Origin: Nitrospiraceae bacterium
GTDB lineage: Bacteria; Nitrospirota; Thermodesulfovibrionia; Thermodesulfovibrionales; UBA1546
Reading direction: 5' to 3'
DNA length: 64,000 nucleotides
NCBI GenBank assembly: GCA_021373015.1
Contig: JAJFTJ010000007.1
Span: 43,135 to 107,134 of the forward strand
Below the pieces are notes generated by a model that was given only the letters and a program-made list of their open reading frames with translations, made no database searches and was not told the DNA's origin. A program made the translations under genes and the position numbers. Position 1 is the stretch's first letter, and the number at the start of each line of letters is the position of its first letter. Shown piece after piece: positions 45,184 to 62,512 of this stretch.

Positions 45184-46581
45184 TTAAGAAAGCTGTTCAA
45201 GAGCGTTCTTAATACAGTCTGCAAGGGGTTCTATTTCCTGTTCATTAATTGTTTTTGCATCGATTATGATAGAGTTATCTTTTATCCTGCATATTACGGG
45301 TGGTGTTCCTGAGCGCAGTTGTTCTTCGAACTGATTAACAGATATCTCTTTTGGTTTTATTGAAACAGCATATGTGGGGAAATCAATCCCAGGAAGAGAA
45401 CCTCCTCCTGCCTGTGAAAAATCCTCCATGACTTCGATCTTCATTTTTTTTAGAAGATATTTAAAATTCGATGCGATTTTTTCAGCGCGCGCTTTTATTA
45501 TTTCTGGTTTTTGCAAAAGCATTCTCAGCGTTGGGATATTTTCTATAGCCTTTTCCTCATCAAGATATTCATGAAGAATTGATTCCAGCGCCGCAAGTGT
45601 TAGTTTGTCTATTCTCACAGCTCTTGTTAATGGATTTTTCTGGATCATCTCAATATATTTTTTCTTGCCTATGATTATTCCTGCCTGCGGTCCTCCGAGG
45701 AGCTTATCTCCGCTGAATGTTATTACATCGACTCCTGCCTTCACTATCTCCTGCACTGTTGGTTCATTTAATATGCCATATGGCTTAAGGTCTATCAGAC
45801 ATCCGCTTCCAAGATCAAAAAGCAGGGGTATATTGTGTTTATCGGAGATAGTTTTCAACTCTTCTATTGAAACACTGTCAGTGAATCCCACTATCTTAAA
45901 ATTAGACTGATGGACTTTCAGTAAAAGCGCTGTATTTTGATTTACGGCATTTATATAATCATCGAGACGGGTCTTATTTGTTGTGCCGACCTCTTTAAGT
46001 ATAGACATTCCTGATATCATGACATCAGGGAGCCTGAATGAACCGCCTATCTCAACAAGCTCGCTCCTTGAAACAATTACTTCTTTATCTCTTGCCAATG
46101 TGTTGAGACACAATAGCACAGCAGCTGCGTTGTTATTAACTATTATTGCATCTTCAGCTCCTGTCACTTCTTTTATTATTTCTACGACATGTGCGTATCT
46201 CTTGCCTCTCTTGCCTTCTTTAAGGTCATATTCAAGATTAGAATAATTTTCAGATACCCTTGCAACATTATCCAAAGCATTGTGTGTAAGTACCGATCTG
46301 CCAAGATTTGTGTGTATGACTATCCCGGTTGCATTTATGACAGGTCTGAGACTGAACGAGGAGAGTTTGTAAATTCTTTTTTCGATTGCTGTGTAACTTT
46401 CCTCTTTTGATAAATCTTTTTTATCATCCAATATTATTTTTCTTCTAATTTCTATTATTTCTCTTATTGCCTTAAGCACATGCCTTCTAGGGAATATCTT
46501 GCACCATTTTATTCCCTTAGGACTTTTTATTATCTCGTCAACAGATGGAAGTTCTTTCAAGAGTTTTTGTTTTGGATTCAT
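45184..46581 (-). CDS. selA: L-seryl-tRNA(Sec) selenium transferase
   Basis: LPSVDEIIKS, NATGIVIHTNLGRS and the PLP-Lys block FSGDKLLGGPQAGIIIG. Confidence 0.92.
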   Translation of the reverse strand: MNPKQKLLKELPSVDEIIKSPKGIKWCKIFPRRHVLKAIREIIEIRRKIILDDKKDLSKEESYTAIEKRIYKLSSFSLRPVINATGIVIHTNLGRSVLTHNALDNVARVSENYSNLEYDLKEGKRGKRYAHVVEIIKEVTGAEDAIIVNNNAAAVLLCLNTLARDKEVIVSRSELVEIGGSFRLPDVMISGMSILKEVGTTNKTRLDDYINAVNQNTALLLKVHQSNFKIVGFTDSVSIEELKTISDKHNIPLLFDLGSGCLIDLKPYGILNEPTVQEIVKAGVDVITFSGDKLLGGPQAGIIIGKKKYIEMIQKNPLTRAVRIDKLTLAALESILHEYLDEEKAIENIPTLRMLLQKPEIIKARAEKIASNFKYLLKKMKIEVMEDFSQAGGGSLPGIDFPTYAVSIKPKEISVNQFEEQLRSGTPPVICRIKDNSIIIDAKTINEQEIEPLADCIKNALEQLS

Positions 46582-55625: not shown

Positions 55626-58600
55626 ATGAGTCTTTCGAGAAGAGATTTCCTGAAGCTCTCGGGCGGAACAGCAGTTGCAGGCGCTATTGCAACAGGTCTT
55701 TCTCCTGAGGATGCCATTGCCAAAGAACGGGAATTAAAGATCAAAGGCACAAAAGAAACAACGACTATTTGTCCTTTCTGTTCTGTTGGCTGCGGTATTC
55801 TGGTTAACACAAAAGACGGCAAGGTGGTAAACACCGAAGGCGATCCAGAGCATCCAATCAATGAGGGAACGCTTTGCAGTAAAGGCAGTTCTATTTATCA
55901 GCTTGCGAACAACCCAAAAAGGCTTACAAAACCACTTTATCGCGCTCCAGGCGCATCAGAGTGGAAGACGGTTGAGTGGGATTGGGCGCTGGACGAGATC
56001 GCCAAGAAGATAAAAACATCTCGTGACAAGTCTTTCAAGAAAACTTCAAAATCAAAGGTCAAAGAAAAAGGGCCTGATGGCAAAGAAGTTGAAGTAGAAA
56101 AAGAATTTGTAGTAAACAGGACAGACGCCATTGCGCATATTGGAAGCGCGGCGCTTGATAACGAAGAGTGCTATATTCTTCAGAAATGGCTGCGTTCTCT
56201 AGGGCTTGTTTATATAGAACACCAGGCGCGAATATGACACTCCGCAACTGTAGCGGCTCTGGCAGAGTCGTTTGGTCGCGGCGCAATGACAAATCATTTT
56301 ATTGATTTCAAAAATGCTGATGTGATTCTTGTAATGGGCGCAAACCCTGCAGAAAACCATCCTATATCAATGAAATGGATACTCAAGGCTGTTGAAAAAG
56401 GCGCTAAGCTTATTGTTGTTGATCCTCGTTTCACAAGAACAGCTACAAAGGCTCATGTATATGCACCGATGCGTTCTGGAACAGACATAGCATTCCTCGG
56501 AGGAATGATCAGATACATTATCGACAACAGTCTCTATTTCAAGGAATATGTCGTCAAATATACAAACGCATCTTATCTTGTAAACCCTGAATACAAAGGA
56601 CCTGGCGAACTTAACGGTCTCTTCTCAGGTTATGATGAAAAGACAAGAAAGTATGACAAAAAGACATGGTCTTTCCAGATGGATGAAAATGGGGTTCCAA
56701 AAAAAGATCCATCACTGACAAATCCAAACTGTGTATTTCAGGTAATGAAAAAACACTATTCACGCTATACCCTTGATAAGGTTTCTTCAATAACAGGAAC
56801 ACCAAAGGAGAAACTTTTAGAGGTATACAAAACTTACGGTTCGACTGGGAAGCCTAATAGAGTAGGAACAGAGCTATATGCAATGGGATGGACGCAACAT
56901 ACTGTCGGCACGCAGAATATCAGGGCAATGACGATAATACAGCTTTTACTAGGGAATGTCGGCATGGCAGGCGGCGGCATTAATGCACTCAGAGGAGAAT
57001 CAAATGTTCAGGGTTCAACTGATCAGGGACTTCTCTTCCATATACTTCCCGGATATCTGCCTGTACCAACAGCCGCAGTCACGGATCTAAAAACATATAT
57101 TGAAAAACACACGCCAAAGACAAAAGAGCCAAAGAGCGTTAACTGGTGGAGTAACAGAAACAAATACATCACAAGTTATCTCAAGGCCATTTACGGAAAC
57201 AAATCAACAAAGGATAATGATTTTGGTTATTCATGGCTCCCAAAGCTTGACGAAGGCATGAATGCATCATGGCTGATTCTCTTTGACAAGATGTTACAGG
57301 GCAAATTCGAAGGGTTTTTTGCGTGGGGAATGAATCCTGCCTGTTCAGGAGCAAATTCCAATAAAACAAGAACTGCTCTTTCAAAGTTGAAATGGATGGT
57401 AAATGTTAACCTCTTTGACAATGAAACAGGATCTTTTTGGAGAGGTCCGGGTATGAACCCCAAAGACATACAAACAGAGGTCTTCATGCTACCATGCGCA
57501 TCTTCAATCGAAAAAGAGGGAAGCATCTCAAACTCAGGAAGATGGGCACAGTGGAGATATAAGGCGATTGCACCAATAGGAGAATCGAAGCCTGATGCTG
57601 AAATTATCAATGAACTTTACTTTAAAGTTAAAAAACTCTACCAGACGCAGGGCGGAAAATTTCCTGAACCTATATTAAATCTCACATGGAACTATGGAGC
57701 AAAAGATGCTGAAGGAAAAATTAAAGAAGTAAACATACACAAGATCGCAATGGAGATTAATGGTTACTATCTTGAAGACATTGTTGATACAAAGGTTACG
57801 CCTGCAAAACATATAGGTAAAAAAGGCGAACTCTGTACAAACTTTGTTTCTCTTCAGGCAGACGGAAAAACTTCATGCGGTAACTGGATATACAGCGGAA
57901 GCTACACGCATAAAGACGGAAAGATTATCAATATGATGGCGAGAAGAGGTAAAAAGGATATAGGTGGACTTGGGATGTTCCCTGAATGGTCATGGTGCTG
58001 GCCTATTAACAGAAGGATAATTTATAACAGGGCTTCGGTTAATCCGGATGGTAATCCATGGGATCCAAAACGCACTGTTATAAAGTGGAACCCAAACAAG
58101 CTTGATCCTATAACTAAAAAGACTGCTCCTGGATGGGACGGTGATATCCCTGATGGGCCTGCCCCGCCTTATTCAGCACAAAACGGTAAATTCCCATTTA
58201 TTATGAGAGTTGATGGAATGGGAGCGTTGTTTGGTCCTGGGCTTGCAGAAGGTCCGTTCCCTGAACACTATGAAGCACTTGAATGTCCTCTCCAGGAAAA
58301 CATAATGTCAAAACAGAGGATTAACCCAACAATCAAACTCTTTTTTGATAAAGGCAAGGGAGCTGCTGAAGACATATATTATTCATGTGATGTCAGATAC
58401 CCTTATGTGGCATCAACATATAGAGTGTCAGAGCACTGGCAGTCGGGTGTTATGACAAGACACGAACCATGGCTTCTCGAGATGATGCCTCAGCAGTTTG
58501 TTGAGATGAGCGAAGAGCTTGCAAAAGAAAAGGGCATTAAATCAGGAGATAAAACAAAGGTCAAGTCTGGACGCGGCGAAGTTGTGGCAGTTGCAGTAGT

Positions 58601-58814
58601 AACGCGCAGATTGAAGCCGTTCAAGATAGGCGGGACAACAGTGCATCAGGTAGGACTGCCTTGGTGTTTTGGCTGGCAGTATCCAGAAGATGGCAGCGGA
58701 GGAGACAGTGCGAATCTTCTTACGCCGACTATCGGAGATGCAAACACAATGATACCTGAATCAAAGGCCTTTATGGTTGACGTCGAAAAGATTGGAGGTA
58801 AACATGGTATCTAA
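55626..58814 (+). CDS. fdhA: Formate dehydrogenase alpha subunit, Tat-exported, selenocysteine-containing (UGA at 56235-56237 read through)
   Basis: GGGGGAGG SD. Twin-arginine signal MSLSRRDFLKLSGG. FeS motif CPFCSVGCG. Track ORFs 55626-56237 and 56286-58814 are in the same frame with no stop other than this TGA. The junction reads IEHQARI-U-HSATVAALAESFGRGAMTNH, which is the Sec site of FDH enzymes. Confidence 0.9.
56242..56281 (+). promoter_or_regulatory. Candidate bacterial SECIS stem-loop for fdhA
   Basis: Lower stem CCGC (56242-45) pairs with GCGG (56278-81). The apical hairpin CGGCTCT-GGC-AGAGTCG (56254-56270) starts 16 nt after the UGA. Confidence 0.5.
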
Positions 58815-59610
58815 TACTATGCCTGTAGACACAAAAGCTGTAAAAAAAGGCGTTTTGATAGATCTTACGAAGTGCATAGGATGCCGCGGCTGTCAGGTTA
58901 TATGCAAAAACTGGAACAACCGTGCAGTGAAAAAAACAGTCCTTACTGGAAATTTCACTAACCCTTTAGAGATGAACTCAGAGACATATACAACAGTAAA
59001 ATTCTTTGAAGAAGAAAAAGAAAATAAAATGAGTTGGAATTTTGTTAAAACCCAGTGTATGCACTGCAAAGACCCAGCGTGTGCATCTGCATGCCCTGTT
59101 GGTGCGTTTACAAAAGATCCAAGAGGCCCTGTAACCTATAATGCTGAAAAATGCATAGGTTGCAGATACTGCATGATGGCATGTCCATTTGGAGTCCCGA
59201 AGTATGAGTGGGAAAAATTGTTTCCTGTAATTCAAAAATGCACATTCTGTGTTGACCGCCTTGATGCAGGGCTTATCCCTTCATGCGCAAAGACCTGCAC
59301 ATCAAAGGCCATATTCTTCGGCGACTATGATGCTATAGTTGCAGAGGCTGAGAAGAGGATAAAAGACAATCCGGAAAAATATGTAAACCATATTTATGGG
59401 AAAGAAGAAGCAGGAGGCACCTCATGGATGTATCTTTCAAGCGTACCTTTTGAACAGTTAGGTTTCAAGACAAATATCCCCAAGAGAGCATTGCCAGATC
59501 TGACATGGGCATCACTTTCAAAGGTCCCTGCTGCGGTCGGAACTCTGATAACTGTGCTTTCACTTGTTGCCTACTTTAGGAACAGGGGAGACAAGGATAA
59601 GGGGGAATAG
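58804..59610 (+). CDS. fdhB: Formate dehydrogenase iron-sulfur subunit (4x[4Fe-4S], C-terminal TM anchor)
   Basis: GGAGGT SD, then 4 nt, then the ATG at 58804. Cys clusters CIGCRGCQVIC, CMHCKDPACASACP, CIGCRYCMMACP and CTFC. C-terminal hydrophobic helix. Confidence 0.9.
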   Translation: MVSNTMPVDTKAVKKGVLIDLTKCIGCRGCQVICKNWNNRAVKKTVLTGNFTNPLEMNSETYTTVKFFEEEKENKMSWNFVKTQCMHCKDPACASACPVGAFTKDPRGPVTYNAEKCIGCRYCMMACPFGVPKYEWEKLFPVIQKCTFCVDRLDAGLIPSCAKTCTSKAIFFGDYDAIVAEAEKRIKDNPEKYVNHIYGKEEAGGTSWMYLSSVPFEQLGFKTNIPKRALPDLTWASLSKVPAAVGTLITVLSLVAYFRNRGDKDKGE

Positions 59611-59612
59611 CC

Positions 59613-60752
59613 ATGAAGGCACTTGATAAAACAATGAAAGATGTTCAGTTTTTTTCTAAGGGAACAAAGATTCTTGTTGTCCTGCTTGGCCTTGCTGCGA
59701 TAGCAGTTATATACAGATATGTATTTGGGCTCGGTGGAGCGACAAACCTGTCAGATGATGTGCCATGGGGTTTATGGGTTGCATTCGATGTTTTTGCAGG
59801 AGTTGCGCTTGCTGCTGGAGGCTTTGCTGTAACAGCGGCTGTCTATATATTCAATATGAAGAAATACAAACCAATAGCAAGACCTGCGATTCTAACAGCC
59901 TTCATAGGCTATTCAGTGGTTATGTTAGGTTTACTTATTGATATTGGACAGTCTCAAAGATTCTGGCATCCGCTTTTAATGTGGCAGCACAGGTCGGTAA
60001 TGTTTGAAGTTGTTATATGTATAACTTTGTACTCAAATGTACTTGCACTTGAGTTTGCTCCTGCAGTTCTTGAAAAACTGAAACTGACAGGGCTTCTTAA
60101 GATACTTAAGTTTTTCACATTCCCTCTGGTAATAGCCGGGATAGTTCTCTCATTCCTGCACCAGTCTTCGCTTGGAGCCTTCTTCCTTATAATGCCTGCA
60201 AGACTGAGTCAGCTCTGGTATTCTCCGATAATGCCGCAGATGTTCTACATCTCTGCAATTGCAGTCGGTCTTGCAATGGTTTCTTTTGAGTCGATCGTAA
60301 GTGCAAAGGCATTCAAGAAAGAATATGAGATGGATATACTTAAGGGACTTGGCAAGGGTACAAGGATAACACTGGGTATCTATCTTCTGGTTAAGATCAT
60401 AGATATGATTGTGAGAGGTACATTCCCAATGCTCCTTGATGGAAGTCTGGCAAGCAAATTCTATATAGCGGAAATTTTGATCGGCGCAATAATTCCGATT
60501 ATTCTTTACTCAATAAAGAGCACCCAGGAATCAGTGGGCGGAATTCTTACCTCCTCAAGCTTTGTAATATTCGGTGTTCTCTTCAACCGCTTCAATATAA
60601 ATTTCTTTGCACAGCTTCGTCCAGGCATATCATACTTTCCTTCAGTAGCTGAGATTGCTATTACCGTAGGATTGGTGGCGCTCGGTATCTTCGCATACAG
60701 GATTGCGGCTGTTTATTTTCCTGTAATGCATGATTCTCAGGAACAACATTAA
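59613..60752 (+). CDS. NrfD/PsrC-type integral membrane quinone-interacting subunit
   Basis: 379 aa with about 10 TM helices. NrfD-like VPWGLWVAFDVFAGVALAAGGF. It directly follows fdhB. Confidence 0.8.
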   Translation: MKALDKTMKDVQFFSKGTKILVVLLGLAAIAVIYRYVFGLGGATNLSDDVPWGLWVAFDVFAGVALAAGGFAVTAAVYIFNMKKYKPIARPAILTAFIGYSVVMLGLLIDIGQSQRFWHPLLMWQHRSVMFEVVICITLYSNVLALEFAPAVLEKLKLTGLLKILKFFTFPLVIAGIVLSFLHQSSLGAFFLIMPARLSQLWYSPIMPQMFYISAIAVGLAMVSFESIVSAKAFKKEYEMDILKGLGKGTRITLGIYLLVKIIDMIVRGTFPMLLDGSLASKFYIAEILIGAIIPIILYSIKSTQESVGGILTSSSFVIFGVLFNRFNINFFAQLRPGISYFPSVAEIAITVGLVALGIFAYRIAAVYFPVMHDSQEQH

Positions 60753-60765
60753 TTTTTGAATCTGA

Positions 60766-60797
60766 AACAGGAGGCTTTAGAAGCCTCCTGTTTTTTT
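60766..60797 (+). terminator. Rho-independent terminator of the fdh operon
   Basis: AACAGGAGGCTT-TAG-AAGCCTCCTGTT followed by a T-run (stem about 12 bp). Confidence 0.85.
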
Positions 60798-60846
60798 CAT
60801 GCTATAATCAAATCAGAAGCTACCAAAAATCTGACAGGGGTTTAAA

Positions 60847-61449
60847 ATGAAAGTAAGAATATTGGTCCTCGCTGTTGTCATGATTTTAAGCAGTGTTATT
60901 TTCTCCTATGCAGATGAGAAACGTTATTCTCTTCCTATCGAAAATTCTCCCTCTTACGGTCCAGCAGATGCGCCAGTCACAATAATAGAATTTCTTGACT
61001 ATCAATGACCGCACTGCGTTGCGGTCGGTCCGACCGTACTAAGGCTTTTAAAAGAATTCAAGGGCAAGATGCGTCTTATTATCAAAAACTATCCTTATAA
61101 ATACAGAGATTACTCGCATATTGCTGCTGAGGCAGCTCTTGCTGCGCAAGATCAGGGCAAATTCTGGGAGATGCATGAATATCTTCTTAAGAAATCACCC
61201 GATCTTGACAGGAAAAGTCTTATAAAATACGCAAAAGATTTAAAACTAGATGAAAAGAAATTCACAGATGATCTGGATAAGATGAAACACTTGGCTGTTA
61301 TTGAGAGAGACAAGAAACTGGCCTTAGACCTTGACCTTTATAATACTCCGACTTTTTTCATTAATGGGAGAAAGGTTGTAGGTAACAGGCCATACGAATA
61401 TATAAAAAAGATTGTAGTGGAGGAGATAAAAAATGCAAAAACGAAATAA
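60847..61449 (+). CDS. Periplasmic DsbA-like (thioredoxin-fold) oxidoreductase with in-frame UGA (Sec) at 61006-61008; redox motif U-P-H-C
   Basis: AGGGG SD. The ATG at 60847 opens MKVRILVLAVVMILSSVIFSYA (signal) DEKRYSLPIENSPSYGPADAPVTIIEFLDYQ-TGA-PHCVAVGPTVLRLLKEFKGKMRLIIKNYP... This continues in frame into track ORF 61069-61449 (QGKFWEMHEYLL, YNTPTFFINGRKV). The TGA occupies the first Cys position of the DsbA F-x-D-Y-x-C-P-x-C motif. Confidence 0.75.
61021..61037 (+). promoter_or_regulatory. Candidate SECIS apical hairpin for the DsbA-like selenoprotein
   Basis: GCGGTCGGTCCGACCGT is almost fully self-complementary (6-7 bp GC-rich stem, loop containing GGUC). It starts 12 nt after the UGA. 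This is close to the geometry of the E. coli fdhF minimal SECIS, and it stands out in an AT-rich context. Confidence 0.55.
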
Positions 61450-62512
61450 AGGGATATTCAGATTTCTTATAATCTTTTTAGTGCTGATTGGTTTTGCATT
61501 GCCTTTCTCTATTTATGCAGGACACCTCGAGCCTTTTAAAACAGTACCTATTCCCGAAAAAAACCCACAGACACCCGATAAAATTGAACTTGGCAAAATG
61601 CTTTTTTTTGACAGGAGATTATCCGGCGACAGCACAATGAGCTGTGCAACGTGTCATGTGCCGGAACAGGCGTTCACAGACGGACAGGAACTGTCACTAA
61701 ACTATCCAACAACAAGAAACTGGAGGAATGCACCAACACTGATTAACATAGCTTTCCAGAAGTATCTGTTCCATGACGGAAGGGCAACGACACTAGAGGA
61801 TCAGGCGCTGTTTCCGATAATGTCTGCATTTGAGATGAACAAAAATCTTGATTTTCTCGAGGAGCAGATACGTATTGTTCCTGAATATGCCAAGTTGTTC
61901 AAAAAAGTATTTGGCGGCGATGTTACAAGAGAAAAAATCTCAATGGCAATAGCAGCATTTGAGCGCACATTAATATCGCTCGATGCTCCGATTGATAAAT
62001 ATCTGAAAGGGAATGAAAAAGCTCTGTCTGCTGATGCAAAGAAAGGACTTGAAATATTCAAAGGCAAGGGTAAATGCGCTGACTGCCACAATGGAGTAAA
62101 CCTTTCAGACGACAAGTTCTATGCGCTTGGAGTGCCTGAAAAGTCAGAGCACCAGCAAGACCCAAGAATCACTGCAACAAGAAGATTTGTTGCTAAGGTC
62201 TATCACTATCCCGACTATAAGACCCTTAATGAAGACCCTGGGAGGTATCTGATAACTAAAGATAAAAAGGACTGGAAGGCATTCAGAACACCAACCCTCC
62301 GTGAGATATCGAGAACAGCGCCTTATATGCATAACGGAATTTTTAATACTCTTGACGAAGTTATCGAATTTTTCAATAAAGGCGGAGGCAAAGGCAACAA
62401 GGTTTTAAAACCTCTGGGGCTTACTTCCGAAGAAAAGAAAAATTTAAAAACATTTATGATAGAGGCGCTTTCAGGAAAAGAGATTGTAATAAAATTCCCC
62501 AAAGTGCCATAG
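61433..62512 (+). CDS. Di-haem cytochrome c peroxidase (CCP/MauG family)
   Basis: Signal peptide. Haem motifs CATCH and CADCH. Also FHDGRATTLEDQA and PYMHNG. The start overlaps the preceding gene by 17 nt. Confidence 0.9.
   Translation: MQKRNKGIFRFLIIFLVLIGFALPFSIYAGHLEPFKTVPIPEKNPQTPDKIELGKMLFFDRRLSGDSTMSCATCHVPEQAFTDGQELSLNYPTTRNWRNAPTLINIAFQKYLFHDGRATTLEDQALFPIMSAFEMNKNLDFLEEQIRIVPEYAKLFKKVFGGDVTREKISMAIAAFERTLISLDAPIDKYLKGNEKALSADAKKGLEIFKGKGKCADCHNGVNLSDDKFYALGVPEKSEHQQDPRITATRRFVAKVYHYPDYKTLNEDPGRYLITKDKKDWKAFRTPTLREISRTAPYMHNGIFNTLDEVIEFFNKGGGKGNKVLKPLGLTSEEKKNLKTFMIEALSGKEIVIKFPKVP

Follow-up and report, generated by a model that had tools for sequence, protein, structure and literature searches.

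Does the stretch between positions 60847 and 61449 hold a broken gene, two small genes, or one gene whose internal stop codon is read as an amino acid? The open reading frame list of the window (the whole 64-kb stretch of DNA that was analysed) splits it in two, a 53-aa piece (60847–61008) and a 126-aa piece (61069–61449). Translation of the plus strand shows one frame of 200 codons with a single internal stop, the TGA at 61006–61008, and a terminal TAA. Judged by this frame and those of its relatives, 60847–61449 is very probably an intact selenoprotein gene, with selenocysteine (Sec) inserted at the UGA of codon 54. An earlier note on this DNA had described a single frame with this TGA as its sole internal stop, an AGGGG Shine-Dalgarno sequence ahead of an ATG at 60847, and a typical signal peptide, of which the reading frame track displayed just the 126-aa fragment. 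All of this holds; the 53-aa piece is listed alongside the fragment. The features of the gene are as follows.

60800–60808, plus strand: extended −10-like promoter element TGCTATAAT, 38 nt 5′ of the ATG, picked out by eye, with a presumed promoter function.
60836–60840, plus strand: Shine-Dalgarno-like AGGGG, 6 nt 5′ of the ATG, read from the sequence.
60847–61449, plus strand: predicted coding sequence of a Sec-containing DsbA/BdbD-like oxidoreductase, 200 codons with U54, from the complete frame, homology and orthologue frames.
60847–60912, plus strand: predicted Sec-type signal peptide, residues 1–22, ending ...SYA/DEK, by inspection.
61006–61008, plus strand: UGA as putative selenocysteine U54, from alignment to the BdbD CPSC motif, TGA in 82/82 relatives and Cys in orthologues P0041 and P0095.
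61019–61039, plus strand: putative bacterial SECIS hairpin, +14 to +34, from its fold when taken alone, synonymous constraint and covariation.
61345–61350, plus strand: T167-P168, at the cis-proline loop position, invariant in the family; the equivalent in the AF2 model of P0041 precedes a β-hairpin.

A two-hexamer promoter scan did not report the TGCTATAAT element at 60800–60808. The product begins MKVRILVLAVVMILSSVIFSYA/DEKRY, which by eye looks like a Sec-type signal peptide, and a K/R segment, a hydrophobic stretch and an A-x-A site are visible on inspection in the window protein and its orthologues. Around the stop the sequence runs ...APVTIIEFLDYQ-TGA-PHCVAVGPTV..., giving a U-P-H-C redox motif (61006–61017) with U54 at the nucleophilic first position; the first 53 residues contain no cysteine. 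The mature product is predicted to be ∼20 kDa, and the predicted tryptic peptide spanning U54 is YSLPIENSPSYGPADAPVTIIEFLDYQ-U-PHCVAVGPTVLR.

Homology extends across the stop codon. Pfam Thioredoxin_4 (PF13462) matches residues 33–190 at 1.3e-28 (100.7 bits, cut-off 23.2), the N-terminal part included, and Pfam DSBA (PF01323) matches at 1.1e-15 (58.3 bits, above the gathering score of 25.6). BdbD (3eu3) matches at 1.2e-18 in an alignment that crosses the TGA and sets the first Cys of its CPSC on it. The DsbA/BdbD active-site block with TGA at the nucleophilic Cys, as proposed in the earlier note, is thereby recovered by the search across the TGA that the note had suggested. For the fold, an AF2 model was made of P0041, a natural Cys orthologue 50% identical to the window protein. 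The model (pLDDT 83) has an insertion of five helices as well as a T-P loop: it comprises a strand at 73–79, C83PHC86 at the N-terminus of helix 1, helices at 116–190, and T196-P197 just ahead of a β-hairpin. Its best Foldseek matches are 3GYK, BdbD, ScsC and α-DsbA2 (TM 0.79–0.85), and the BdbD, ScsC and α-DsbA2 types are the closest solved structures, at 1.2e-18 by sequence and TM ∼0.8 by fold. On this sequence and model evidence, the product is predicted to adopt a thioredoxin fold of the DsbA/BdbD class that carries a helical insertion and the redox centre U54-P-H-C57. It shares a helical insertion and a cis-Pro loop with Bacillus subtilis BdbD (3EU3/3EU4) and ScsC/α-DsbA2, and its redox motif sits where they have CPxC, but BdbD and ScsC use Cys where the window protein would use Sec. 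The partner of BdbD is BdbC and that of ScsC is ScsB, neither of which adjoins the dsbA-like gene; in the window and the loci examined, no gene for a DsbB, BdbC, VKOR or DsbD/ScsB partner adjoins it.

The TGA is conserved. It occupies the same codon in 82/82 clade members (61–77% identity), which come from independent metagenomes and MAGs. One orthologue, L001, is carried by the complete chromosome CP070737.1. Two orthologues carry Cys forms, CPHC in P0041 and CPQC in P0095, and no frame disruption was found among the orthologues, which have TGA or Cys at this site, the outcome that the earlier note had set as a check on its proposal. Ahead of the TGA the consensus is ..R..VP..DSP..GP..APVT.IEF.D.Q, and no clade member has a stop in the 30 codons 5′ of it. 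Codon-position entropy is 0.55/0.44/1.52 on the 5′ side of the TGA versus 0.51/0.28/1.37 on the 3′ side; the coding sequence is equally constrained before and after it. Standard annotation misses the gene, as had been claimed: about 105 of the best 120 database homologues are truncated calls of 126–145 aa that begin just past the active site, labelled ‘thioredoxin domain-containing’ or ‘DsbA family’, some with a spurious Trp.

Immediately past the UGA lies a hairpin in which +14 to +21 pair with +27 to +34, an 8-bp stem closed by the apical loop G22 G23 U24 C25 C26 (61027–61031). Its core, GCGGUC-GGUCC-GACCGU (61021–61037), begins 12 nt past the TGA and is the self-complementary 17-mer with a GGUC loop noticed earlier, which the sequence confirms. 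Folded alone, the hairpin reaches −11.0 kcal/mol (z −3.5, 0/200 shuffles). The earlier suggestion to fold the region past the UGA met with a divided result: the hairpin alone stands out, and the longer stretches 61000–61065 and 61006–61045 do not (z −0.2 and −0.9), their minimum free energy (MFE) structure being a different hairpin. That alternative (+2 to +25) was rejected; it is without covariation (185–224 of 500 shuffles equal it), and its pairs 6-21 and 8-20 are broken in 33/74 and 54/74 sequences, respectively. The published bacterial SECIS (bSECIS) model has a loop of 3–9 nt with G within its first two positions, an upper stem of 4–16 bp, a UGA-to-loop distance of 16–37 nt and an MFE of −7.5 kcal/mol or lower (PMC13188914, Fig. 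2). The window hairpin falls inside all four limits, with its 5-nt GGUCC loop, 8-bp stem, 18-nt spacing and −11.0 kcal/mol, in keeping with the bacterial SECIS geometry that the earlier note had assigned to it, and its loop fits the N1-G-[G/U]-N-N2 pattern. Neither a whole-window Rfam search at the gathering threshold nor one of 60980–61080 at E ≤ 10 returned a SECIS or tRNA-Sec match.

The strongest evidence for the hairpin is evolutionary. Third codon positions at +18, +21, +24, +27 and +30 are fixed at 92–99%, while the 4-fold controls at +6 and +60 vary freely: GGT makes up 96% of Gly codons within the hairpin versus 3% at control +60, and CCG 99% of Pro codons versus 54% at control +6. 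Within the SECIS zone, third positions have an entropy of 0.73, versus 1.37–1.52 elsewhere. Double-sided changes occur at five of the eight pairs, a value that 0/500 shuffles attain and that collapses in controls with slid pairing; pair 18-30 records at least five independent G-C to A-U events with G·U intermediates. The hairpin is kept by selection, and the conservation and covariation that the earlier note had wanted to see are both there. G23 is invariant among the orthologues and +24 is U in 71/74 and A in 3. Pair 20-28 is a C·A mismatch in 41/74 orthologues, the window itself being paired there, and 17-31 is unpaired in 20/74.

The hairpin is similar to the SECIS elements of Escherichia coli fdhF and fdnG in lying within the coding sequence directly past the UGA, in a minimal stem-loop that begins 10–12 nt past it, and in G and U at +23/+24 of a GGUC-type apical loop. 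In E. coli numbering, G23 and U24 are apical and the upper stem carries a bulged U. The window hairpin, unlike that of E. coli, has no bulged U, and most orthologues have the C·A at 20-28; its loop differs as well, being either the 5-nt GGUCC or, with G22 and C26 paired, a GUC triloop.

Part of the decoding machinery and a second selenoprotein gene are encoded in the same window, as the earlier note had said.

45184–46581, minus strand: selA (L-seryl-tRNA(Sec) selenium transferase), Pfam SelA 1.1e-155.
55626–58814, plus strand: FdnG/FdhA-type formate dehydrogenase (FDH) alpha subunit, TAT-exported, with its own Sec-UGA at 56235–56237.

The in-frame TGA of the FDH gene (56235–56237) lies within the motif ARI-U-HSATVA. 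selA is the sole dedicated Sec-machinery gene within the 64-kb window, and a search of the window with ARAGORN, Rfam and, for 20 large ORFs, Pfam found no selB, selC or selD. In Nitrospirae, selC is reported to lie embedded within selB (PMC13188914). In the mechanism that we infer, from selenium insertion and export through to redox direction and client, the hairpin at +14 to +34 would display G23 and U24 in its small apical loop and recruit SelB·GTP·Sec-tRNA(Sec), so that the ribosome would put in Sec and not terminate. The product would then leave the cytoplasm via its Sec-type signal peptide. By analogy with DsbA-class proteins, U54/C57 would cycle between selenol/thiol and selenenylsulfide, the latter being exchanged with paired cysteines in periplasmic clients.

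Could the UGA be read through without Sec? Near-cognate insertion of Trp or Cys, or a lineage-specific reassignment, would also yield a full-length product, with the hairpin acting as a generic stimulator of read-through or pausing. Three database proteins (P0001, P0018 and P0121) have W at this codon, which raised the idea of a Sec-to-Trp subclade. That idea was dropped: pipelines give W in P0018 and P0121, but the codon in both is TGA, and the W comes from the use of a different genetic code. A genuine TGG is found only in P0001, and its nearest relatives, P0123 (98%) and P0122 (92%), are truncated calls, the pattern expected for TGA carriers. At the level of loci, one MAG (L126) has a real TGG at the codon and one orthologue (L127) is a Cys form, and both still keep the hairpin; this could reflect recent conversion or some Sec-independent hairpin role. 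Against read-through of this kind, TGA is the ordinary terminator of 13/43 long frames in the window, and therefore there is no global recoding. Trp at this codon, moreover, would take the place of the catalytic nucleophile and leave the site inactive; the hairpin has SelB-type bSECIS geometry with G/U at +23/+24; and genes for SelA and a Sec-FDH lie nearby. We regard Sec-independent read-through as very unlikely.

Less credible still is a locus with two products, a 53-aa exported peptide and a 126-aa cytoplasmic helical-domain protein that starts at Met75 (61069) and has no redox centre. Databases do annotate it in this way (P0002, ∼105 similar entries and the Logan calls), but the internal start varies, relatives being called from different starts to give 119–145 aa; the stretch from the UGA to Met75 is conserved as coding in the same frame; and a thioredoxin fold is impossible without strand 1 and helix 1. 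The least tenable reading, a decayed pseudogene in which a Cys-DsbA suffered a nonsense mutation and the 126-aa ORF is a remnant, would suit the fragments that standard gene callers yield and the ordinary local MFE fold but is effectively refuted, to the point of having next to no probability, by an identical TGA codon in 82/82 relatives whose divergence (61–77% identity) excludes one recent clonal lineage, by the lack of further stops or frameshifts, by purifying selection equally strong on either side of the TGA, and by the co-varying downstream hairpin.

Selenoproteins of this kind have precedents. The Sargasso Sea survey (Zhang, Fomenko & Gladyshev 2005, PMC1088965) already predicted DsbA-like UxxC selenoproteins, as did later work on genomes (Zhang et al. 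2006, PMC1794560; Peng et al. 2016, PMC5029168, in 41 organisms), in agreement with the precedent from metagenome surveys that the earlier note had mentioned. Since they have been predicted since 2005, the window protein is a known kind of protein and not a new class. Like the members of that family, it combines a DsbA-type thioredoxin fold with a UxxC motif led by Sec and a bSECIS right past the UGA; Cys homologues are widespread, and the family, too, is known from computation alone. Unlike the 2005 set (COG2761, FrnE-type), the window protein matches best with Thioredoxin_4 and with exported proteins of the BdbD/ScsC type. A 2026 review (PMC13188914) describes a ‘DsbA-like protein form 1’ with PF01323, which the window protein resembles in domain and motif, PF01323 and U-P-H-C; the published representative of that form, of the COG2761 type, is NIP15863.1. 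The best NCBIfam match (residues 36–190) is NF041057, the Rcas_1661 (seleno)lipoprotein family, which has Sec and Cys UxxC forms and corresponds to the ‘DsbG-like’ selenoprotein of PMC13188914. The score of 85.5 bits against a 190-bit cut-off places the window protein outside this family; it also differs in length (200 aa versus a 247-position profile) and has an A-x-A signal without a lipobox Cys.

What might such a protein act on? Its neighbours offer the following.

58777–59610, plus strand: FDH electron-transfer subunit, 4Fe-4S, from a Pfam search.
59613–60752, plus strand: NrfD-type membrane subunit, from a Pfam search.
60764–60797, plus strand: terminator-like hairpin and U-run 3′ of the NrfD-like gene, from its fold.
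61433–62512, plus strand: di-haem cytochrome c peroxidase (BCCP) gene, here ccp, Pfam CCP_MauG 2.7e-53.

In the window, the terminator-like hairpin (60764–60797; −21.1 kcal/mol, z −5.7, 0/200 shuffles) stands between the FDH operon and the dsbA-like gene; a consensus terminator scan did not list it. On the other side, the start of ccp overlaps the stop of the dsbA-like gene by 17 nt, and the two genes are probably co-transcribed and translationally coupled. The best PDB matches of the peroxidase are Geobacter MacA and CcpA (5e-53). Among relatives, ccp lies directly 3′ of the dsbA-like gene in 64/65 loci. FDH lies 5′ of it in 22/37 loci, and the other 15 have unrelated neighbours, which rules out the notion that FDH is always upstream. 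fdhE is found downstream in 22/36 loci, coming after ccp in loci without a neighbouring FDH too. The conserved unit in relatives reads Sec-dsbA-like gene, ccp and, often, fdhE, frequently just after an operon for a periplasmic Sec- and W- or Mo-containing FDH. In the searchable literature we found no mention of this Nitrospirota/Thermodesulfovibrionales clade, nor of ccp, fdhE and FDH as its linked genes; this synteny is the new element here.

Gene order suggests that the protein may protect or mature FDH under oxidative stress, and the most likely role, because of the order of the dsbA-like gene, ccp, fdhE and FDH, is periplasmic redox maintenance tied to FDH and to stress from peroxide or oxygen. 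The competing possibility is a Sec-DsbA-like protein with no tie to FDH, a general thiol-redox or apocytochrome c factor in the manner of BdbD or ResA that would serve the peroxidase and other cytochromes. The linkage to ccp in 64/65 loci, as against 22/37 for FDH, speaks for it. So does the closest solved relative, BdbD, a member of the B. subtilis cytochrome c thiol redox pathway. The cysteines of the peroxidase also suit this possibility, being confined to two CxxCH haem-attachment motifs, and for the same reason a structural disulfide of the peroxidase was discarded as a client. Set against it are FdhE, an FDH-specific accessory factor that follows ccp even where there is no adjacent FDH, and the oddity of a factor for a single cytochrome in a lineage that makes many multihaem cytochromes. 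We consider cytochrome handling without FDH somewhat unlikely, though a serious contender.

A more specific version of the tie to FDH draws on the enzyme itself. The window FDH matches Desulfovibrio (Nitratidesulfovibrio) vulgaris FdhAB at 2.4e-128 and has equivalents of its Met405, Cys845 and Cys872, all three of which are kept in 21/21 linked FDHs. Reports on DvFdhAB describe an allosteric disulfide, C845-C872 (bioRxiv 10.1101/2024.01.10.571421, PMC11134731, PMC13397495); the residue numbers are those of a preprint by the same group following Oliveira et al. 2024. A Dsb-type partner for the C845-C872 switch goes unmentioned in the sources consulted. Reduction of the pair raises the activity of the enzyme about tenfold. 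From gene order, we hypothesize a tie between a switch of the DvFdhAB type and the Sec-DsbA-like protein. In its fullest form, the Sec-DsbA-like protein, the di-haem peroxidase and FdhE would make up a dedicated oxidative-protection module for periplasmic W/Mo-Sec FDH. The U54 selenol would react fast with H2O2 or oxidised species, and the resulting selenenylsulfide would be relayed to Cys845-Cys872 of FDH, locking the O2-protected resting state. Alternatively, the Sec-DsbA-like protein might re-reduce the FDH pair once anoxia returns; either way, the peroxidase would clear H2O2. We hold this complete scheme to be improbable, a conjecture with an outside chance of being right. If true, a published FDH redox switch would gain the physiological partner it has lacked, and DsbA-like selenoproteins their first defined client.

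For the family, the consequences begin with annotation: at least 82 loci and ∼105 of the best 120 database homologues are affected by mis-annotation, which makes this a clean, well-controlled case for fixing selenoprotein annotation in Nitrospirota/Thermodesulfovibrionales MAGs. The hairpin is a compact natural case of an RNA structure encoded at synonymous sites, with stepwise change from G-C through G·U to A-U. DsbA-like selenoproteins have been listed for some twenty years with no client or pathway assigned, and the synteny described here gives a testable hypothesis. The pairing with ccp, FdhE and FDH suggests a reason for using selenium in the periplasm of an anaerobe: fast, reversible oxidation chemistry.

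An earlier note, made from the sequence alone, had proposed a hidden selenoprotein gene at window positions 60847–61449 (forward strand), with TGA at the first Cys codon of a CxxC motif. The finding is real: every coordinate proved correct when the sequence was re-read, and homology, TGA conservation and hairpin covariation support the interpretation. We consider it very likely that this DsbA-like gene is intact, encodes Sec and carries a SECIS that looks functional. Translation of the 200-codon frame gives a single internal stop, TGA at 61006–61008 (flanked as APVTIIEFLDYQ-TGA-PHCVAVGPTV), and a terminal TAA; AGGGG lies 6 nt 5′ of the ATG. Inspection suggests a Sec-type signal peptide at the N-terminus (MKVRILVLAVVMILSSVIFSYA|DEKRY). 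Our ORF list splits the gene into 53 aa (60847–61008) and 126 aa (61069–61449), and a gene caller yields the same two pieces, 53 aa and 126 aa, on an identical public contig.

DsbA homology extends across the TGA. With the stop read as Cys, the Pfam model Thioredoxin_4 spans residues 33–190 (1.3e-28; 100.7 bits, cut-off 23.2), and the Pfam model DSBA also matches (1.1e-15). The best solved relative, B. subtilis BdbD (1.2e-18), aligns without a break from residue 31 to 196 and places the TGA opposite the first Cys of its CPSC motif. A structure model was made of P0041, a natural Cys-form orthologue (CPHC, 50% identical). In the predicted structure (pLDDT 83), a beta strand leads to the CPHC at a helix N-terminus; five inserted helices follow, and then the invariant T-P loop, a beta hairpin and one terminal helix. 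Foldseek matched this model to 3GYK, BdbD, ScsC and alpha-DsbA2 (TM 0.79–0.85), and the modelled fold is DsbA-class.

About 105 of the best 120 database homologues are 126–145 aa long and align with no more than the C-terminal two-thirds of the query, the pattern left when a gene caller restarts past a stop. One of the homologues (P0002), labelled ‘thioredoxin domain-containing protein [Nitrospiraceae bacterium]’, is 100% identical; others come from Thermodesulfovibrionales sources. We compared DNA from 80 metagenomic relatives (61–77% identity), one MAG chromosome (L001) and the window. TGA occupies the identical codon in every one of these (82 of 82), within the motif FLD[YF]Q-TGA-PHC, and no clade member has a stop in the 30 codons 5′ of it. 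Entropy by codon position shows the same coding periodicity upstream of the TGA (0.55/0.44/1.52) as downstream (0.51/0.28/1.37). Cys forms also occur among the relatives (P0041, CPHC; P0095, CPQC), so that orthologues carry TGA or Cys and never a broken frame. Together these observations exclude a decayed pseudogene. Nor is UGA globally reassigned, since TGA terminates 13 of the 43 long frames in the window.

The earlier note had also likened a hairpin around the 17-mer at 61021–61037 (GCGGUC-GGUCC-GACCGU) to a bacterial SECIS (bSECIS). Counting the U of UGA as +1, this hairpin spans +14 to +34, with pairs 14-34 to 21-27 and the loop G22 G23 U24 C25 C26. Folding gave a divided answer: alone, the hairpin reaches −11.0 kcal/mol (z −3.5), but longer stretches (61000–61065 or 61006–61045) have unremarkable energies (z −0.2 and −0.9), and their MFE fold is a different hairpin in which the UGA region pairs with +16 to +25. 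Comparative data decided between the two. The SECIS-like hairpin is paired in 84% of cells and shows double-sided changes at five of eight pairs (30 cells), values reached in 0 of 500 shuffles; in slid controls, pairing drops to 20–49%. The MFE alternative was rejected: it lacks covariation, is equalled by 185–224 of 500 shuffles, and has two pairs that fail to form in 33 and in 54 of the 74 sequences, respectively. The change from G18-C30 to A18-U30 involves two synonymous third positions and occurred separately in five or more lineages; G.U intermediates (loci L103 and L105) adjoin A-U carriers (L091 and L124), and in L111 C21-G27 is replaced by U-A. Third codon positions +18, +21, +24, +27 and +30 are 92–99% fixed among relatives, versus a free four-fold site at +6 (G 54%, T 22%, C 14%, A 11%) and a likewise variable +60. 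The Gly codon at +22 to +24 is GGT in 96% of sequences, against 3% for the Gly at +58 to +60, and third-position entropy is 0.73 bits over +1 to +36 versus 1.37–1.52 elsewhere.

With its 5-nt loop fitting N1-G-[G|U]-N-N2, 8-bp stem, 18 nt from UGA to loop and folding energy when isolated, the hairpin agrees with all four criteria of a published bacterial SECIS model (PMC13188914, Fig. 2). Rfam contains no family matching it. Unlike the E. coli fdhF SECIS, it has no bulged U, and 41 of 74 orthologues carry a C.A mismatch at 20-28, where the window itself has U-A. The remaining orthologues (within L046–L125) have U-A, C-G or U-G. The mismatch might be a protonatable wobble or the counterpart of the bulged U in E. 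coli SECIS elements. G23 and U24 correspond to the positions recognised by SelB in E. coli fdhF.

P0001, encoded at L126:62–667 (GCA_030636905.1, DAOVWB010000181.1), has a genuine TGG at the Sec codon (FLDYQ-W-PHC) and retains GGGUC-GGUCC-GACC, the core of the SECIS. The relatives nearest to it, at 98% and 92% identity, appear as truncated calls, which is what TGA carriers would produce. This TGG reflects either an assembly error or a recent point mutation, inactivating or tolerated. In P0018 and P0121 (L130:250–855 and L131:283–891), the active-site W arises solely from TGA translated under another genetic code. Read directly, L130 has TGA and the compensated A18-U30 hairpin; we infer that L131 carries TGA as well, since translation under table 11 fails to give its database protein. 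Such W-for-TGA calls are artefacts of annotation, by which selenoproteins pass for ‘WxxC’ proteins. The Cys-form P0041 (TGC; L127:431–1117, Ga0259481_10574509) keeps its SECIS-like hairpin intact (CGAUC-GGUCC-GAUCG); in it, G19-C29 has become A-U, a compensated change. It is either a fossil SECIS after recent Sec-to-Cys conversion or a hint of a Sec-independent role for the hairpin. Proteins of ∼340 aa from Myxococcales-like sources (P0003, P0004, P0033, P0075 and others) contain two tandem related DsbA-like domains, one with CPFC and the other with a degenerate CPFS.

As the earlier note recognised, the window also encodes SelA and a Sec-containing formate dehydrogenase (FDH). The relevant features are as follows.

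45184–46581, reverse strand: SelA (Pfam 1.1e-155)
55626–58814: TAT-signal FDH alpha subunit, with its own in-frame TGA at 56235–56237 (ARI-U-HSATVA)
60764–60797: strong terminator-like hairpin and U-run, 3′ of an NrfD-like gene (−21.1 kcal/mol, z −5.7)
60800–60808: TGCTATAAT, 5′ of the dsbA-like gene (read directly; function putative)
61433–62512: di-haem cytochrome c peroxidase (CCP) gene, whose start overlaps the dsbA-like stop by 17 nt

No tRNA-Sec, SelB or SelD was found within the 64-kb window. Within 56235–56290, the long hairpin 3′ of the FDH Sec-UGA (+6 to +49, −20.7 kcal/mol, apical loop GGC, G at +27/+28) differs in shape from the dsbA-like SECIS, and both are presumably read by the same SelB.

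The terminator-like hairpin followed by TGCTATAAT, neither of which a consensus scan for promoters and terminators reported, suggests that here the dsbA-like and ccp genes form their own transcription unit and not the tail of the FDH operon. Of the 65 loci offering 400 nt or more of sequence, 64 encode the peroxidase (closest solved relatives Geobacter MacA and CcpA, 5e-53) immediately downstream and on the same strand; FdhE follows it in 22 of the 36 with enough sequence. FDH genes lie upstream of the dsbA-like gene in 22/37 loci; the others have unrelated neighbours (acetyl-CoA synthetase, EF-G, TPR proteins). This near-constant ccp linkage beside varied upstream genes defines a conserved unit of Sec-dsbA-like gene, ccp and, often, fdhE. 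The Cys-form P0095 (CPQC; L128:408–6658, SDBV01001443.1) directly follows an fdnG(Sec-split)-fdnH-fdnI (cytochrome b) operon and is flanked on its other side by a MoaA-like radical-SAM gene, in a region with no peroxidase gene. FDH linkage thus reaches beyond the Sec clade, and ccp linkage may be specific to it.

These neighbours suggest candidate clients. The window FDH is closely related to D. vulgaris FdhAB (2.4e-128), an enzyme that an allosteric Cys845-Cys872 disulfide switches between O2-protected and active states (bioRxiv 10.1101/2024.01.10.571421; PMC11134731; PMC13397495). The window FDH retains the equivalents of both cysteines (C887 and C921) and of Met405 (YAMGW motif). Both switch cysteines, and the signature including Met405, are kept in all 21 linked FDHs from related loci that could be examined. 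The FDH surface disulfide is therefore an appealing candidate client, and a selenol quick to react with peroxide would suit the part of sensor or relay. The idea draws on gene order and conservation, and we consider it improbable. A serious alternative is a BdbD-like role in handling thiols during the maturation of cytochrome c or CCP. A structural disulfide of mature CCP was rejected as the client, because the window peroxidase has no cysteines outside its two CxxCH motifs.

DsbA-like UxxC selenoproteins have been predicted before. The Sargasso Sea data yielded nine sequences, assigned to COG2761 (PMC1088965); further cases were predicted in Anaeromyxobacter, Desulfovibrio desulfuricans and Desulfotomaculum (PMC1794560), and a 2016 survey predicted them in 41 organisms (PMC5029168). 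A 2026 review describes them as ‘predicted with high confidence’ and functionally uncharacterised (PMC13188914). Among curated NCBI models the nearest is NF041057, which describes the thioredoxin-like (seleno)lipoproteins of the Rcas_1661 family (‘DsbG-like’); our protein scores 85.5 bits against its cut-off of 190 and has no lipobox, making it a relative and not a member. In the literature, of which our coverage was incomplete, we found no report of a DsbA-like selenoprotein tied to cytochrome c peroxidase or present in Thermodesulfovibrio-type bacteria. The gene is a lineage-specific new case of a selenoprotein type already predicted computationally, and so should be only moderately surprising to specialists. 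What it adds is the quality of its comparative support, the exposure of systematic mis-annotation, and a conserved ccp/fdhE/FDH neighbourhood that lets a testable hypothesis take the place of ‘function unknown’.
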